A DNA stretch of 64,000 bases from NCBI GenBank assembly GCA_951406725.2, contig OX597832.1:48794001-48858000 (forward strand), read 5' to 3'. The position numbers and the translations under genes were made by a program. Below the pieces are notes generated by a model, which made no database searches, was not told where the DNA came from, and saw only the letters and a list, made by a program, of their open reading frames with translations. How positions within the stretch are numbered: the first letter of the stretch is position 1; every line of letters begins with the position of its first letter. Positions 7,615 to 64,000 of this stretch are shown one piece after another. Source of the DNA: Octopus vulgaris (taxonomy: Eukaryota).

Positions 7615-8212
7615 ATGTTTTTTATTGCCCACAAGGGGATAAACAAAGAGGGAGCAAACAAGGAGAGACAAAGGGACTAAGTCGATTACATCGACTCCGG
7701 TGTGTAACTGGTACTTATTTAATCGACCCCGAAAGGATGAAATGCTAAGTCGACCTCGGTGGAATTTGAACTCAGAACGTAGCGGCAGAGGGAATACCTA
7801 TTTCTTTAATACCCACAAGAGGCTAAACGCAGAGAGGACAAACAAGGACAGACAAACGGATTAAGTCGGCTTTATCGGCCACAGTGCGTAACTGGTACTT
7901 AATTTATCGACTCCGAAAGGATGAAATGCTAAGTCGACCTCGGTGGAATTTGAACTCAGAACATAGCGGCAGAGGGAATACCTATTTCTTTAATACCCAC
8001 AAGAGGCTAAACGCAGAGAGGACAAACAAGGACAGACAAACGGATTAAGTCGATTTTATCGGCCACAGTGCGTAACTGGTACTTATTTAATCGACCCCGA
8101 AAGGATGAAAGGCAAAGTCGACCTGGGCGGAATTTGAACTCACAACGTAACGGCAGACGAAATACCACTAAGCATTTCGCCCAGCGTGCTAACGATTCTA
8201 CCAGCTCGCCGC
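7615..8212 (-). mobile_element. SINE family A, trimeric
   Basis: One head ('ccagctcgccgc' at ~8200) with three tandem ~180-bp bodies on the minus strand. Confidence 0.9.
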
Positions 8213-11722: not shown

Positions 11723-12187
11723 CAGTGATTGAACAAAATAATGGGAACACCTAGCATCATAGCACCCTAATTTTGAAATATCTATAAAACCACCAAAAGC
11801 TTGTTTATTTTTATGGTTTTTCATTTATTATTAGTGTTGCTTAATATGTTTTGCTAAAATTGCTGTTTCTCTTCAGATATCATTACAAAAAGGTAATTAA
11901 AATTCATTAAAATGACACATCTATCAGATTTTCAAAGAGGCCAAATTGTTGGTGCTCGTATGGCAGGCGGTAGCGCAACGAAAACTGCCGAAATGTTTGG
12001 TGTATCAAGAGCTACTGTCTCCAAAGTAATGACAACCTTTGAGAAAGAGGTAAAGAACCCCTCGTCGAAACAAAACTCCGCAAGAAAACCAATACTTTCA
12101 GATAGGGACCGTCGAACTCTTACGTGAATTTTTAGTAAAGATCACAAAAGTACAGCTCCCAAAATTATTGCAGAGCTTAATGACCAC

Positions 12188-15362: not shown

Positions 15363-17138
15363 ATATATATTAGAGACATTCACACAAATTTTATATACAT
15401 ATTAAATACGTGCAGTTGTCTCTGCTGCATTTTTGACAATAATCATCTAGATAACGGTTGCGCTTATCCAGAAAAAAAAAGGTTATTTTAATTAGTTAAA
15501 ATTCACTTAAAAGTATGCTAATGATCAAATTCTTACTGATTACTCATACGCAAGGTGCCTCTGGTATCCTTTCACTTAAATCTTTTCTTTACACACAGAA
15601 ATATAATCATACAGAAATACGTACATTTTAATAGAAATACATAAAATTTGTATTTCGCAATATGTTTATGACATTCTGCATAATTTTGCATATCGACGTG
15701 CATTTAAATAACAGCAGTTAATTTGTACAGGCAAATATCATTAATGCTAAATCAAACAGTTTGTTAAGTTTCGCCAATCGAGTTTCTTTCTCGAACAACA
15801 TGAACAGAATTTTAATCTGTCAGAAATTGCTGCCTCCTTCCTCTCTTCATCTCTTCATCTCATCTTATACAAAAATTCTTTAATCCAAAACAGCTGTTAT
15901 ACGTCATTTCATTTAAATTTTTATTTCTTCCAGAAACCGCATACATCTACCGACCACATCAACCCACCATCTCTGTCCTAGACGTACCCGGATTATGAAA
16001 TCACCCCAAACAACACAATGTACCGTAGTAGTTTTATTCTGTGGTATCTCATTTAAAAATTTTGTTTTCTCTTTTCTTATCCTATTTTTTCAATTTATAT
16101 CAGTTGGAATTTAAAAAAAAACTATGGACGTCATGTTTTTTTTATCGTTATATAATAATACAGACGACAGATAAGGATAATGATGACGGAAAGGTTGTGA
16201 TGAGGATGAGGATGACGCTGATGACATCATCATCATCATTGCCATCAGCATCAAGATAATGCATTATAAAACACTTTTAAAACCTTAGATACTTCTTGCT
16301 GTTGAATAGAATATATAAACCAGAAATCGATTGATTTTTACATAAACATACATAAAATAAAGAAAATAAAGACATAACACTGGAGAATACACCAGAGTCA
16401 ACTGAAAATCAAATACAGTGGGAGGAAATGTGCGCAAAATATTCAGTACTATGTATATATACAAAAAGAGTTCCTTGGAACAGAAAAAAATGTGTATTGT
16501 AGCAACGTAAACGTAACCCGACATAGCCAACAAGGAATTCATCTACACATTATGAATAACAAATAACCAGATTGTCAAAGTTATTCATTTTTTGTTAAAA
16601 CACGTGACCAGTCGTCATGGGAATGTGATAGTAGAATCCAATAAATGTTGATTGAATGCTGGAGAGAAGCATGAATTCTCTATAACAAAAAAAATGGTGG
16701 TGGGAGGGGAGAGAAAACATCAGAGACTTCTACTGGACAACTCTGCGATTGTCTAGATGACTTACAAGTTTATGCGACTTTGTGAGATCATGATATAAAT
16801 TCAATCGGCCTCATATTCTCCAAGGTTACCTCAGCACTGACCAATTACCTAAATTGTGCCGCGAAAGTTGTACCGTTCTGGTAAGTGACATCGTCATCGA
16901 TTTCCTTCTTGTAGTTCTTCCCAAATACTTTGAGAATAGATTACGAGTTTTTGTGTTTTTTTTGTATTTTGGGGGCTTGCACTTCCGCCTGTCCTTTATT
17001 TTCAAGATAACATCTGTGCTATCATACACTCTGCCTCTACCAAAAAACGAAGTGTTGTATGCAACAGTTCACGTTTTAGTAAGTGACATCGTCATCGATT
17101 GCCTTCTTGTAGTTCTTCCCAAATATTTTGAGAATAGA

Positions 17139-17461
17139 GTGGTTGCATAATGTCACCATAACGTGACGGTCCCGTAAAGGGAATTACACCACCGCTATAT
17201 AGCCCTAGGAAGCATCGACGCTTCCTGTCGGCCTTGACACATTTCCTGTGCCCTTATATTTGCAAAGAGGAGGCAAGCACCCCCACCAGCTAGGACTAGC
17301 AACCTGAAGACATGCATGTTTCTGGGTCTTGCCCGTCATCAGTCCAGGGTATCGAGTCCCCGCTAGTGGTGATACTTGCCAAGCCTCCGCAATATATATA
17401 TATATATATTTACAGTGAAATCTATTCACTGGTCACCGTAATTAGAAATATTTCTAAATTG
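17139..17461 (-). mobile_element. Non-autonomous hammerhead-carrying retroelement (Penelope pLTR / retrozyme-like)
   Basis: Flanked by 9-bp direct repeat 'gagaataga' (17130-17138, 17462-17470); same family terminus at 62319-62507; contains a hammerhead motif. Confidence 0.75.
17303..17348 (-). ncRNA. Type I hammerhead ribozyme motif
   Basis: Minus strand: cctgga-CTGATGA-cgggcaagaccca-GAAA-catgcatg-TC-ttcagg; 6-bp helix I, GGG/CCC helix II, perfect palindrome ACATGCATGT for helix III, GUC cleavage triplet. Confidence 0.85.
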
Positions 17462-18195
17462 GAGAATAGATTACGAGTTATTGTGTTTTTTGCATTTTGA
17501 GGGCTTCCACTTCCGCCTGTCCTTTATTTTCAAGATGAAATCAGTGCTATCAAACACTCTGCCTTTACCAATAAACGAACAGTCGTTTGCAACTGTTCCT
17601 TCTCAAGGATAAGCAAAGCAACCGTGGCCCTAATGAAACAAGTAAAGTTATCCTTTTTCTTTCGCATGCCACTAATAGATTGTGGCAGGCTCATGCCTGT
17701 TTTGAGAACAAATGTTGCCAGGCTTTTGTATTTTCAATAAAGTATGTCATATCTAAAGTTTTCTTGTTCGAAGGTACACCTGCAATGAGAATGAGAGGCG
17801 TTGATGTTGCATTGTCGGTTTTTTAAAAATCCTTTCTTTACGTTTTGAATGTCATATATTTCTTTCATTGCTTGGAGTTTGTTTCTTAATTCCTAAATAT
17901 TAGTTTGATATTTATTTTGTTTTTCTGATCGCTGTTTTACTCTGCACAATGTAATTTTTTTTCTCTATTCGTGGTTACCTTATAATGAAATGGAGCTTTA
18001 GCGTGAAATAAAGAAATGGAGGAAATCTTTAAGAAAATTTCCTTTTTGCTTAACCCTGGAACGATATACTCTTTCAAAATGTTCAGTAAATATCCCCGTC
18101 GACAATGGAATCTGGAATATAAATGAATTTCTTCTTTTATGCTTGTCAAATGCAAAAAAGAAAAAAAAAAGCAGGCGCAACTTAGAACCACAGGG

Positions 18196-26240: not shown

Positions 26241-26316
<76 letters not shown>

Positions 26317-27891
26317 GATATGAAATTTGGATTAGAAAAATGCGCCAAAGTAACCATGAAAAGAGGAAAACTAGTTAAGAGTAACAACATCACACTAGAT
26401 AAAACCAATGAAATAAAAGAATTAGACCAAAGCCAAACTTACAAATACTTAGGAATCCATGAACTAGATAAGACACAACACACACAAATGAAAGAGAAAA
26501 TAAAAAAAGAATATTATAGACGAGTTAGATCAATACTAAACACAGAGCTCAATGCTAAAAACAAGATAATAGGTATCAACACTTTAGCTGTCCCAGTTAT
26601 AAGTTACAGCTACAATATCCTTAACTGGACACGAAATGAACTGACCAAAATAGATAGGAAAACAAGAAAAATAATGACAGGATCTAGGATGCATCACCCA
26701 AAATCTGACATAGAAAGACTATATATACAACGTATGGAAGGTGGTAGAGGCCTTATACAACTGGAAAACTACTATAAAATAACCACCATAGGACTGCAAA
26801 AATATCTACTTCAGAAGGAAGGAAAACTGATCCAGATAGCGGCAAAACACGAGCAAAACAAAAAACTGTTCTCAGTATTTAAGGAAGCTGACAAATACAA
26901 ACAAGAAATCATACCACCTAATAAACATGAAGAAGAAGAAGAAGATGAAGAAACAACAAAAGCTATAAAACAAATGAAATCCAAACTAAAAACAGAACAG
27001 CAACGAACCATGATAAAACGATGGCAAGAAAAGCCCTTCATGGTAAATACTGCACTAAACTAAACGCAAAAGAAATAGACAAAGAAAAATCCCAGCAATG
27101 GTTGAGAAGCTCAGGACTCAAAGCAGAAACAGAGGGATTTTTAATTGCAGCACAAGACCAAAGCCTCCCCACCAGAAATTACCAAAAACATGTAATGAAA
27201 AGAAATATTACAAGTAACTGCAGAATATGTGGAGATGGACAAGAAACAATAAATCATATTATCTCTAGCTGCCCAGTCCTGGCTAAGAAGGAATATATTC
27301 ACAGACATGACAGAGTTGGAACCTACATACATTGGAAGCTATGCCAACATTATGGAATAACAACAGAAAAAAGATGGTATAGGCACACACCAGAAAAGGT
27401 CACAGAAAACGAGAAAGCAACCATACTCTGGGATATGCCGATACACACAGATAGAGAAATTAAGGCCAACAGACCAGATATAGTTGTCAGAGATCATGAA
27501 GAAAAAAAATGCTTTTTAATTGATGTATCAATACCGGCAGATGACAACGTGTCTCTAAAAGAAATGGAGAAACTCTCAAAATACAAAGACCTGGAAATAG
27601 AGGTAACTAGAATGTGGAATCTGAAAACAGAAACAATTCCTATCATAGTAGGTGCATTAGGCATGATAAAAAAATATTCAGACAAATACATAACAAAAAC
27701 ACCAGGACTTACAAACACATATAACATACAGAAAATTGCACTACTAGGCACTGCCCACATCCTACGCAGAACACTTTCCATACAATAACCATCAGAGCAT
27801 CACAACAAATCACAGCACATACCCAAGGCACACAGAGCTGCGCTCGGTAGTGAAGTGAAAGCACGCTATAAAAATAAAAATAAAACTACTG
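26317..27891 (+). mobile_element. 5'-truncated R4/Dong-clade non-LTR retrotransposon with restriction-like endonuclease
   Basis: Flanked on both sides by (AAT)n; coding region plus ~100-bp 3' UTR. Confidence 0.92.
26320..27788 (+). pseudogene. C-terminal RT/thumb, CCHC zinc knuckle and PD-(D/E)xK endonuclease, one frameshift near 27035
   Basis: Motifs MKFGLEKC, YKYLG, GGRGL, ETEGFLIAAQDQ, CRICGDGQETINHIISSC, RHD, RPDIVV..LIDVSIP, KLSKYKDL; ORFs 26320-27063 and 27021-27788 join if one base is restored (WQEKPLHGKY). Confidence 0.93.
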
Positions 27892-46054: not shown

Positions 46055-46659
46055 ATATATTTCTTTATTGCCCACAAGGGGCTAAACATAGAGGGGACAA
46101 ACAAGGACAGACAAAGGGATTAAGTCGATTACATCAACCCCCAGTGCGTAACTGGTACTTTATTTATTGACCTCGAAAGGATGAAAGGCAAAGTCGACCT
46201 CGGCGGAATTTGAACTCAGAACGTAACGTAAGACGAAATACCTATTTCTTTATTACCCACAAGGGGCTGCACACAGAGGGGACAAACAAGGACAGACAAA
46301 GGGATTAAGTCGATTACATCGACCCCAGTGCGTAACTGGTACTTTATTTATCGACCCCGAAAGGATGAAAGGCAAAGTCGACCTCGGCGGAATTTGAACT
46401 CACAACGTAACGTCAGACGAAATACCTATTTCTTTATTACCCACAAGGGGCTAAACACAGAGGGCACAAACAAGGACAGACAAAAGGATTAAGTCGATTA
46501 CATCGACCCCAGTGCGTAACTGGTACTTTATTTATCGACCCCGAAAGGATGAAAGGCAAAGTCGACCTCGGCGGAATTTGAACTCACAACGTAACGACAG
46601 ACGAAATGCGGCTACGCATTTCGCCCGGCGTGCTAACGTTTCTGCCAGCTCGCCGCCTT
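46055..46659 (-). mobile_element. SINE family A, trimeric, young
   Basis: Three nearly identical ~180-bp bodies and one head. Confidence 0.92.
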
Positions 46660-46793: not shown

Positions 46794-47210
46794 TAAGGCG
46801 GCGAGCTGGCAGAAACGTTAGCACGCCGGGCGAAATGCGTAGCCGTATTTCGTCTGCCGTTTCGTTCTGAGTTCAAATTCCGCCGAGGTCGACTTTGCAT
46901 TTCATCCTTTCGGGGTCGATAAATTAAGTACCAGTTACGCACTGGGGTCGATATAATCGACTTAATCCTTTTGTCTGTCCTTGTGTGTCCCCTCTGTGTT
47001 TAGCCCCTTGTGGGTAGTAAAGAAATAAGTATTTCGTCTGCCGCTACGTTCTGAGTTCAAATTCCGCCGAGGTCGACTTTGCTTTTCATCCTTTAGAGAT
47101 CGATAAATTAAGTACCAGTTACACACTGGGGTCGATGTAATCGACTTAATCTGTTTGTCTGTCCTTGTTTGTCCTCTCTGTGTTCAGCCCCATGTGGGTA
47201 GTAAAGAAAT
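46794..47210 (+). mobile_element. SINE family A, dimeric, TSD-flanked
   Basis: 19-bp TSD 'atatactc(t/g)tttactctct' at 46775-46793 and 47211-47229. Confidence 0.92.
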
Positions 47211-47234
47211 ATATACTCGTTTACTCTCTGGCTC

Positions 47235-49943: not shown

Positions 49944-50757
49944 TTAGGTTAGCAACTAAGTTCTCGCCGTTTTTTTTAAATCCAAATTTTCTACAAGGTT
50001 TAATAAAAAAAAATAATAATTATTAATTAATAATGTATTCACCCTTGTTGTTTACAACTTCTTCCCAACGTTCGACAAGATTTTCAATACCTCGTTGGTA
50101 GAAATCACCCGATTTCGACTCGAAAAAAGGATTCAACCAAGCTCTCAATTCTGCATCAATATTGAACGAAACTCCGCGCTTATCATGTGAAAGTGATCCA
50201 AAGAGGTGGAAATCCGTTGGTGCCAAATCATGAGAGTACGGCGGTTGTGGCAGCAATTCCCAGCCACGCGTTTGAATGGCTTCCTTGGTCATATTGGCAA
50301 TATGAGGGTGGGCGTTGTCGTGCAGCAGAAGAACTCCATGCTAACGATTAGGTCTTTTTGTCTTGAATAGTCGTGTTGAGTCGTTCCATCTGTTGAACAT
50401 AGAGTTCCGCGTTGACTGTTTGGTTCCGTTGAAGCAATTCGTAATGGATAATCCCTTCCCAGTCCCACCATACGCACAACATCGTTTTACGCGGATGAAG
50501 ATCTTGTTTCACCCGCGGTGTCCCTTGTTTACCGGTGCTAAGTCATTCCTTACGCTGCTTCGTATTGATGTACAGGCACCATTTTTCGTCGCCAGTAACG
50601 ATTCGGTAAAGAAATCGTTGCTTGTGTCCATGAGTTGAGTGGTGACGAGCAAGCAAACCAGCGGAGATTGTGGCTCGTTGATTTTTGCTGTCACTTAAAT
50701 CATGCGGAACCCATGCTTCATACTTCTGAACCTTTCCCATCGACTGAAGATGCTTCT
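49944..50757 (-). mobile_element. Mariner element, 3' portion with TIR, frameshifted transposase
   Basis: TA followed by 'ttaggttagcaactaagttctcgccgttttt' terminus; motifs WVPHDL, IVTGDEKW, LLHDNAHPH, YSHDLAPTDFHLF spread over several frames. Confidence 0.92.
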
Positions 50758-52084: not shown

Positions 52085-53030
52085 CTAAAATATACTCTCC
52101 TTCATTTTCTACAATGCTCTTCCATCTATCTGGTCGACTTGCAAGGCCATTCTTTCAAAAAATACAAAAAATACCCCTCCAGTACTGTTCTGACTTCGTC
52201 TACAGAATTCATATTTTTCTGTCCAAATAATTTTGAAGACTGTGGAATAAATGATAAGCACATGGAGCAACGTCCGGCGAAGGTGGTAGTGCTAGTGGTG
52301 CGTGAGGCATCGTTTCCCATTCAAACTACTACAGCATTTGAAATGTCATCCTCGCTTTATCCTGATGGAAGACTAGCTTTCATCTTGAAACCAAAGATGG
52401 TCGTTTTTCTTCTAGTGCTGACTTAAGCCACTTAAGCTGCTCGGCGTAAATCTCCTTTGTTATCGTTTGGTTCGAGTTTAAAAGTTCAAAGTGGACTAAA
52501 CCGTTTATATCCCACAAAACAGCTAACAACACCTTACGTGGGTGAAGACCTTCTTTAGCCTGGGGTGCCGATATTTCTCTTTTCCCTACCCACTGTATTC
52601 GGCGCTTGACATTTTTATAGAGAACCCATTTCTCGTCACCAGTCACTATTCGGTTCAAAACCAAGTTCATTCGTGAGACATGACAACAAAGAGGAGCTCA
52701 CATTCACTCTGTGCGTGCGATTAGACTCGGAAAGTTTGTAAGGAACACATTGACCCAATTTATTCGTTTTTCCGATGAGTCGCAGGTGTCGATGAATGGC
52801 TAATTGACCAAATCCAAGCTTCTTTGCTAGTTCCTCAACGGTTACGATGGGGTTTTTGTTCCACCAGGATGTGCAGGACGTCCTCGTCAAGCTCTGCTTT
52901 TCTTTCAGGACGAGGGTCGTCTTCTAGGCTGTAGTTTCCATCTCGGAATTTCTGGAACCACTGCTGACACTGGCTTACGCTTATTGTCTGTTCCCCATGT
53001 ACTGCATTAATATTCCTCGTACTGCCCATT
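52085..53030 (-). pseudogene. Second, distinct mariner transposase remnant
   Basis: 'WFQKFRDGNYSLEDDPRP', 'VEELAKKLG..IHRHL..IGK..LGQCVPYKL', 'IVTGDEKWVLYKN', 'LHPRKVLLAVLWD..GLVHFELL'; multiple frameshifts. Confidence 0.92.
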
Positions 53031-53069
53031 GCAGGTAGTTCATCCCGTACCTCTCTGACTTTTAGGTTT

Positions 53070-61484: not shown

Positions 61485-62318
61485 ATGCAAATACATATAT
61501 GTATATATGTGTGAATGTGTCTTTGCGTAAATGTGTGTGTATGTGTGTATGTGGGGGACTCTTACGTTTACACGTGTGTGTCTTTTTACACGACCATATA
61601 TATGGTCGTCTGCGTGTGTTCGAATTATTGGCTGATTTCTTATTATATTACGTGAAATAAATCTACATTTACTTATGCCTATCATATAGCCATATGTGGT
61701 TGTGTAGAAATGAAAAGGAAAAAAATATAGCAAAGGTGAAATATGAAGGAAGCCTGTCACATCCACTAGCGATTCCATTATTTATATTTATATTCATCCG
61801 AAGAGTACGAATCTGTATAACGTCAGAACATATCACTTGTAAACGGGAAACATTATTTTTTTCTCTCCAAAATTTCCAATTTGTTTTTTCATTTTCAATA
61901 AACTCCAAATAATGTTGAAAAAATTTGCAAAACGTTGTTAGATTTCAATAGAAATAAATGTCTACGAAACTGTAATTGTTTGGACAAGTCGCCACTTTAT
62001 CTAGAATCGTGTGTTGAAACTAAAGCAATTGCATGCTAGAAAAGCCGTTTTAGCAATTTCTGAAGAGCATAAATATTGTTATGTTCAAATTTCTTAAGGA
62101 GTCAATATTTTCGTTGCATTTCTGCGTCCTAGTCGCCGATATAATTCTAAGCATATGTTGAAAATCAGTTATTGGTACATTTTGAAATGCCTCTGAACAT
62201 GTCTTTTAGAGGATTTTTCTTCTCGCTTTTTGTTTCCTTTTCATTGAACTAATTATTTACTCATCAGAAATATTAAATTTCTAAATATCTCATAGAGATA
62301 TGTACGGTGGTGGAGCGA

Positions 62319-62507
62319 TAGAGTGGTTGTATACTGTCAACTTAACGTGACAGTCCTGTAAGGGAATTACACCACCACTGTTTAGCCCTAGGAAGCATCA
62401 ACGCTTCTTGTCGGCCTTGACACGTTGATGCTTCCTAGGGCTAAACAGCGGTGGTGTAATTCCCTTACAGGACTGTCACGTTAAGTTGACAGTATACAAC
62501 CACTCTA
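62319..62507. repeat. 85-bp arm near-perfect palindrome (84/85) made of the terminus of the 17139 family
   Basis: Arms 62319-62403 and 62423-62507, 19-nt spacer, single mismatch A62377/C62449. Confidence 0.95.
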
Positions 62508-64000
62508 ATTATTTACTGATTTTCCATTCAATGAAATTAAATAGATGTTAGTTACCATGCTGCGTGCAGAAAGCCATGAAGGTTTTCACACCTTATGAAA
62601 TATTTCTTTCGTATTTGGACACAAATCCAGCAATGCAGAAGGGAGTGGGAAGTTTGGTTACATCGATCTCAGTAGATGATTGATTCTTCATTTACCGACC
62701 CGAAAAGAATGAAAAGCAAAGTTTATCTCGGCGGAATTTGAACTCAGAATATAAAGACCCAGCATAATTACTGCCAAGCATTTTGTCCGACGTGCTAACG
62801 ATTCCACCAATTCACCTCCTGTCACCACAAGGAACAGTGAATATAACAATGCTCATAAAAATCTAAGTTTACTCAGAATTGAGCGGATTTTAAAATCATT
62901 AACAGATTAAACTATAACATACAGTGGATAAGTGGGTAGGCTGAAATATTATATATAGAGGATATGCGGGTATACTTCAATTTCTTGCAAACAAAATATG
63001 TGAATATAGAATATAGCTATAATATAATACATAAACAAGTGTATCGTATTCGCATATAGACTGTTGATGAACAATAATAAAGTTACTCTAAGTTGAAAAT
63101 AAAATAAATTTAGACATAGTAAAATCATATTTCGAAGTGAAAAAGAAAACCTTATATTTTCCACCAAATGTATGAAACTACGGTTCTACAGGGAAATTGA
63201 GAATGTTAAAAAAATAACCATATCTATTAAGATATAGAATTTAAAAATTATTCTATATCTTGGAGTAGATTACATATGGTTTAATGCTTGTAGCAATTCA
63301 GACGGAACAAATAGAATTTAAATGCAACATATAAACCTCGCGAACAGAAGGTTTTAAATTATTTAAATTGTCACACACTATCCGTATGCCGTATACATTG
63401 GATGAAATGGATACGGCTATGTCTGTAATGAAAATATTTGAAGTTCTTTGATAACCATACTGAACGCTATTTCATGTTTCTAGTTTCAATTTTTTAAAAT
63501 TTAAAAGAGAAAAAAGCTAAATCATTAGAAACAAAATATGGCTTCGTAAACCTTTATGCTTGTAATTCGAGTGGAGGCGTTTATATTCCCCTCTGTCTGA
63601 CTCTTTTGAAATGGTTGTTGTGTAGGCTTTGATAATTCTTGCATAATTCTCTACAAATTTATTTGATATGCGCTATTTCGAATATAAATGATGAAGTTAT
63701 ATCAACGTTAAGGAGAATTTTTTTTTAATTTCGCAAACGCTGAATGTAAATATATAAAACTCCGAAATTACAGATGGCAAAGCTTTGAATAAAAATATAT
63801 AAAACGAGCAAAGAGGATGATTAGTAAAAGCGAATATAAAACCGAAAATTGGTGATGAAATCTAACAGAACTATTGGCGTATATCTAATGTGAAAAGTGT
63901 GGAAAAGAAAGTGACGATGTAATGGTGTTCATCTATTTATTTCATTCACAACATCCAATACATTAATCATAGATGCTATATTCAGAATTGAACTTTGGAT

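Follow-up and report, generated by a model that had tools for sequence, protein, structure and literature searches.

Penelope elements are described as 5'-truncated insertions, to which an inverted copy and, at one end, a tail of 30-40 bp are often attached (PMC8557442). For example, in a Penelope element of Adineta the duplication measures 9 bp and the tail 31 bp (PMC3846280). According to the account given of the anole Penelope enzyme in vitro, this protein cuts and extends both strands, uses two internal starts that define the tail and accepts uncut RNA (PMC11167929). The hammerhead ribozymes that concern us here are of type I, which in its canonical metazoan form is reported to have a helix I of about 6 bp, a short palindromic helix III and a highly conserved G10.1-C11.1 pair, and for which a dimer model of action has been presented (PMC4209133). 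Retrozyme repeats of this kind measure 350-390 bp in mussel (PMC7229834). A 2026 preprint presents retrozymes as non-autonomous Penelope derivatives on the basis of co-occurrence and phylogeny and not of insertion marks; it also describes solo monomers, reports cleavage in one of nine dimers and samples no mollusc (bioRxiv 10.64898/2026.07.22.740005). In the papers drawn on here, support for retrozymes borrowing Penelope enzymes comes from co-occurrence, shared hammerheads and phylogeny. Among the literature matches listed there was no octopus retrozyme and no retrozyme with Penelope insertion marks, and Repbase, Dfam or the supplementary species tables may list the family that we describe below. 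The words hammerhead, ribozyme and retrozyme are absent from a paper that covers Penelope activity in an octopus genome (PMC13282606).

We analysed a 64,000-nucleotide stretch of Octopus vulgaris contig OX597832.1, referred to here as the window, which contains two copies of a family that bears insertion marks of the Penelope type and whose unit is too short for protein coding (Table 1). The reading that we favour, with reasonable confidence, is that copy 1 is a solo and worn copy of a high-copy, non-coding repeat bearing a type I hammerhead. This repeat is a likely animal non-LTR retrozyme whose unit we infer to be about 362 nt, and the reverse transcriptase (RT) and endonuclease of a Penelope-like element probably copy it in trans.

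Table 1. Coordinates of the two family copies and their surroundings in the window.
Feature	Position	Strand	Remarks
Copy 1, solo element	17135..17461	minus (RNA sense)	3' end at 17135; about 90% of the inferred 362-nt unit
Copy 1, 3' segment	17135..17260	minus	several hairpins, AC-rich end; most abundant part of the family
Copy 1, predicted rod fold extending helix I	17261..17391	minus	38 further pairs in the hammerhead-shaped fold
Copy 1, type I hammerhead motif	17303..17348	minus	helix I, CUGAUGA, helix II, GAAA, palindromic helix III
Copy 1, (TA)n run	17391..17410		between rod and 5' hairpins
Copy 1, 5' segment	17411..17461	minus	multi-copy; 17444-17459 matches the copy 2 tail
Copy 1, left target-site duplication	17130..17138	plus	GAGAATAGA; last 4 nt overlap the copy 1 3' end
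Copy 1, right target-site duplication	17462..17470	plus	GAGAATAGA
Uninterrupted host duplication copy	16874..17071	plus	holds the empty site
Copy 2, left arm	62319..62426	minus	3' ~108 nt of the family; 96/109 columns identical to copy 1
Copy 2, right arm	62423..62507	plus	inverted 3' 85 nt; a 99% complement of the left arm
Copy 2, one-sided tail	62262..62318	minus	lies past the shared 3' end; base-pairs with the body; its end matches the copy 1 5' end
Copy 2, left target-site duplication	62249..62261	plus	exact over 13 nt; 16 nt if one mismatch is allowed
Copy 2, right target-site duplication	62505..62517	plus	first 3 nt overlap the right arm 3' end

Copy 1 sits in the second copy of a host duplication, the two copies of which are identical in 63 of 67 and 109 of 125 aligned columns. 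The sequence GAGAATAGA is present once in the uninterrupted host copy and on both sides of the insert in the other, which makes it a target duplication whose empty site is known. A shared run as long as these 9 nt was found in 9 of 3000 random window pairs. All three family ends in the window stop at TAGAG, and copy 1 thus really ends at 17135 and overlaps its own duplication by 4 nt. An earlier note on this DNA had described an insertion bounded by 9-nt repeats that splits a local duplication. The repeat and the empty site bear this description out, whereas the left boundary that it gave, 17139, gives way to the family end at 17135. Copy 1 has no long direct repeat (no LTRs), and no reading frame is open across it. 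Contigs that join flank and element (17136-17186 and 17423-17650) occur in runs labelled organism A, where they cover the right junction, and in runs labelled organism B, where they cover both junctions, indicating that the insertion is common to both labels. Judged by its 12 substitutions in 108 nt relative to copy 2, copy 1 is old. On the plus strand the (TA)n run is followed 15 nt later by TCACT (17391-17429), an arrangement that could be due to chance; a similar TATA and initiator-like pair, 20 bp apart, is described for the Adineta Pen2a repeat (PMC3846280).

Several other repeats occupy the window. Two long frames on the plus strand at 26242-27788, with a zf-RVT match (E 4e-6), belong to a 5'-truncated non-LTR retrotransposon that lies between (AAT)n runs and that we take to be Dong/R4-like. 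Remnants of Mariner/Tc1 transposases are found at 52383-53068 (minus strand) and 11897-12124 (plus strand), with matches to Transposase_1 (E 4e-22), HTH_48 (E 5e-10) and HTH_23; another such remnant at about 50546-50650 (minus strand) was judged by eye. An abundant SINE-like repeat, which presumably resembles an octopus SINE, forms 184-bp tandem units at 7621-8166, 46058-46607 and 46845-47211 and has many dispersed copies besides.

The minus strand of copy 1 contains CUGANGA, GAAA and NUH in type I order. Six pairs, one of them G-U, form helix I between 17348-17343 and 17308-17303, and the core runs from 17342 to 17309, with CUGAUGA at 17342-17336 and GAAA at 17322-17319. Helix III is the 10-nt palindrome ACAUGCAUGU (17319-17310), the duplex of which has a computed energy of -13.3 kcal/mol, and the GUC site places C17 at 17309 with the predicted cut after it. 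A minus-strand hammerhead with a GUC site and a 10-nt palindromic helix III had been claimed for this element, and every one of these features is present in the sequence. In helix II, C(17335) stands opposite A(17323) at positions 10.1/11.1 and is followed by three G-C pairs and the loop CAAGA, and the alternative register, in which a G-C pair comes with an additional C and an additional A, is likewise atypical. The canonical metazoan 4-bp helix II closed by G10.1-C11.1 is absent in copy 1. The earlier note gave the C-A mismatch for this copy; the mismatch itself is confirmed, but its private status is not, as there is no row at 17323 or 17335 among the 40 variants listed out of 51.

When both strands of the window were scanned with our own type I descriptor, the copy 1 motif was the single match; the chance rate of this descriptor is 6 of 300 resampled windows before the rod and the palindrome are counted. 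An Rfam search, the route that the earlier note had pointed to for a hammerhead call, gave no hammerhead here at gathering score and none up to E 10. A 45-codon frame opens at the AUG within CUGAUGA, and its stop is common to copies 1 and 2. Directly before helix I there is a UAC (17349-17351, minus strand), which we assume to be like loop 1 of the schistosome hammerhead and which would suggest a loop 1-loop 2 contact.

The hammerhead lies at the tip of a predicted rod with a folding energy of -64.8 kcal/mol (z -5.34), and none of 200 shuffled sequences folded as well, in line with the long rod-like fold proposed before; the four outer helix I pairings proposed with it all fall within the predicted rod. 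Fold strength differs by strand, with a z of -6.14 for the minus strand vs -4.56 for the plus strand. As a single molecule the RNA is predicted to fold without an active core, with probabilities of 0.00 for helix III, 0.21-0.46 for helix I and 0.71 for helix II, and the hammerhead-shaped monomer fold is about 6 kcal/mol worse than the best fold. Two rods folded together give a double hammerhead with intermolecular helices I and III at -135.1 kcal/mol vs -128.2 kcal/mol for two monomers. This cofold was obtained in two of the three spans tried, with a different cofold in the 73-nt span. A hammerhead for which folding is predicted in the dimer alone would cut tandem transcripts to monomers, and a single copy would be inactive alone. 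By these models copy 1, being solo and mismatched, is a poor candidate for a source of self-cleaved or circular RNA and is probably inactive.

A self-search of the window returned a second family copy at 62319-62507. Its 13-nt flanking direct repeats have a chance rate of 8 in 3000 random pairs. The tail is found only on the left arm, measures 54-57 nt, and pairs with the body over 10 nt. A tRNA-derived SINE head at 62305-62378, considered for its tRNA-like look, was dropped since ARAGORN found no tRNA in the window. Outside the duplication of copy 2 there is a perfect 10-nt inverted pair (62239-62248/62527-62536) that is AT-rich and possibly due to chance.

The structure of copy 2, an almost perfect inverted repeat of 85 nt that is flanked by direct repeats, is what one might expect from a MITE-like or fold-back element that moves as DNA, with hairpins that serve DNA transposition and with no part for RNA. 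We regard this explanation as highly improbable, the least probable of those considered: copy 1 has no terminal inverted repeats, the two duplications are of unequal length (9 and 13), folding is stronger on the minus strand as given above, and sequencing depth falls steeply from one end of the element.

This depth profile comes from contigs of 4 of 24 listed public DNA runs that were placed on 16850-17650, and the summed depth of such contigs is not a copy number. Relative to the flanks, summed depth is about 10^4-fold at 17201-17227, about 10^3-fold at the hammerhead and 10- to 150-fold at 17417-17443 in all four runs. In run X1, for example, the depths are 1,063,493 (17201-17227), 69,405 (hammerhead) and 6,022 (17417-17443), with a flank depth of 49. 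This order fits a high-copy repeat in which, on the minus strand, the 3' end is fixed and the 5' ends are ragged, and many loose ends mean that part of the drop may reflect diverged subfamilies and not truncation. Strand-switch joints account for 10 of the 12 joints listed. Loose ends behind 17287 (19 contigs in X2 and 16 in X3) read GAAA-CUAG-UC on the minus strand, which by its sequence is a sister form with the same GAAA and GUC core and another palindrome, ACUAGU. A further loose end behind 17351 in X2 could be either a subfamily arm or an inversion joint. The only core variant among the 40 listed of 51 is C17 to A. At paired positions, read one side at a time, 7 of 11 listed variants keep the pair and 4 break it; with pairs read singly this table is uninformative on covariation and lends it no support, and we set it aside. 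Some runs guessed to be RNA contained 0.17-0.26 of the query words, which is no evidence either way. Scans with a 3'-end pattern gave no match in metagenome contigs and none in prokaryote genomes, and one match in a viral contig was only 18 nt and was taken as chance.

A 3'-heavy depth profile and long duplications would also fit LINE-type priming, and a LINE fragment does exist within the window. The family could then be a non-LTR retroposon, SINE-like or of another kind, that depends on a LINE for its movement, and its hammerhead could be a passenger or due to chance. We hold this to be very unlikely, as the 3' end has neither poly(A) nor a simple repeat and is fixed, and is accompanied by a one-sided tail and inverted arms, while no tRNA is present in the window. 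The motif is also infrequent by chance (the 6 of 300 windows given above, with rod and palindrome not counted), and the sister form retains a palindromic helix III.

We return to the favoured reading, a retrozyme copied by Penelope-like enzymes, and to the length of its unit. The tail of copy 2 ends in sequence that matches the 5' end of copy 1, suggesting that the sequence past the 3' end leads back to the start of the unit. The pattern shared by the two has two matches in the window relative to 0.01 expected, having been picked after both sequences were viewed. Behind 17452, the loose-end consensus in X1 (five contigs, agreement 0.7) has 15 of its first 18 letters in common with the tail when compared by eye. 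In addition, one X3 contig, which is one of the 12 listed joints and comes from one of the four runs, runs from 17452 back to 17133, head to tail. The sum (17444-17135)+(62319-62266) gives a unit of 362 nt, a length inferred from two copies, with a GC content of 45% (0.453), and the X3 joint (320 nt plus a gap of unspecified size) agrees with it. The joined circle folds at -136.8 kcal/mol, which beats 100 of 100 shuffled tails and only 89 of 100 random 53-mers from the window; as 11 of 100 random 53-mers do as well, the circular fold is weak as proof of closure and was not used as such. Closure of the unit at about 362 nt, which would leave no space for an open reading frame, is suggested by a single tail, a single loose-end consensus and a single contig joint. 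There is no tandem array within the window, and copy 1 is solo at its locus.

These results also bear on a different origin, namely that the element is a truncated pLTR of an autonomous Penelope-like element, that the 362-nt closure is due to chance or a local rearrangement, and that full copies hold an RT-endonuclease ORF between the repeats. Truncation at the 5' end, arms in inverted orientation, a tail and duplications of 9-13 nt all belong to the marks of Penelope elements, and an octopus genome is reported to contain active Penelope families (PMC13282606). Most Penelope hammerheads are reported to be single truncated motifs (PMC4209133), and the 3' end could still be common to this family and an autonomous partner. 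We nevertheless consider this origin unlikely, given that the tail enters the 5' end of copy 1 and not coding sequence, that one contig joins ends 320 nt apart, that copy 1 has no frame open across it, and that the helix sizes fit the canonical type I retrozyme motif better than the minimal Penelope motif. No match to RT or GIY-YIG was obtained in the 143 frames scanned of the 307 complex open frames of the window, and no Penelope ORF emerged among them or in the element.

Under the favoured reading, tandem or circular unit RNA would be bound by a Penelope protein, and the target DNA would be cut with a 9-13-nt stagger. The cut 3' end would anneal over 3-4 nt to a fixed internal site in the AC-rich stretch of the RNA and prime copying, which would mostly stop after about 100 nt. 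In some events both cut strands would act as primers, at two sites separated by about 55 nt, and this would give the inverted arms and one-sided tail of copy 2. Copy 1 would represent one long run through the hammerhead cut site that stopped 32 nt short of a full round. Because copy 1 crosses the cut site, the template would be uncut or re-ligated RNA, and a linear tandem transcript explains both copies as well as a circle does. The idea of a non-coding ribozyme-bearing retroelement, already put forward in the earlier note, is strengthened by the high copy level, the 3'-heavy depth, target-site duplications at both copies, the lack of an RT/GIY-YIG match in the frames scanned and the predicted dimer; copy 2 had not figured in that note.

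More tentatively, and with rather less than even confidence, we envisage a 362-nt RNA circle that would be copied straight to DNA by a Penelope RT from two fixed internal starts, one per cut strand, and through the ligated hammerhead junction. The C-A mismatch and the long rod would then be a family-wide guard that keeps the monomer circle uncut until two molecules pair. If this were true, the genomic copies would be a physical record of the proposed retrozyme cycle. The family also offers the published in vitro Penelope assay a concrete substrate.

When compared with known systems, as these are set out in the portions of the literature drawn on here, the family resembles animal non-LTR retrozymes in its type I hammerhead, absence of an ORF, unit within 150-450 bp, GC content of 45% (below 50%), absence of LTRs and duplications of more than 4 bp (9 and 13 nt here). 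It is also similar to the axolotl retrozyme in having a dimer-dependent motif, which here is predicted. Unlike animal non-LTR retrozymes, there is no tandem array at the locus, most of the depth lies in short 3' fragments, C-A replaces G10.1-C11.1 and a long rod extends helix I. Animal non-LTR retrozymes produce monomer RNA in linear and circular form, whereas the octopus family is known here from DNA alone. Plant LTR retrozymes are likewise non-coding, hammerhead-bearing and mobilised in trans, but their hammerheads are of type III and they possess LTRs and 4-bp duplications, features that do not occur here (PMC7229834; bioRxiv 10.64898/2026.07.22.740005).

The 5' truncation, inverted arm and one-sided tail are shared with endonuclease-bearing Penelope-like elements, the duplications of which are 8-10 bp, as compared with 9 nt at copy 1 and a longer 13 nt at copy 2. 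Also shared with Penelope-like elements are a hammerhead, located in theirs in the terminal repeat, and an internal RT start in an AC-rich stretch, which for the octopus family is proposed. In contrast, the octopus family has no RT/GIY-YIG ORF and has a tail of 54-57 nt, instead of 30-40, that leads to its own unit start. There is a 3-4-nt target overlap here, while the anole enzyme is reported to have started without homology in vitro (PMC11167929). Copy 1 is not an autonomous Penelope element, though it is Penelope-like at insertion. With the hammerheads of Penelope pLTRs its motif has in common the type I topology, a palindromic helix III and predicted dimer action (PMC4209133), and relative to these its extended 6-bp helix I, short helix II and 10-nt palindrome bring it closer to the canonical form of metazoans than to the minimal motif. 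We therefore file this family, from its DNA, as a likely member of the retrozymes and a likely non-autonomous derivative of Penelope elements.
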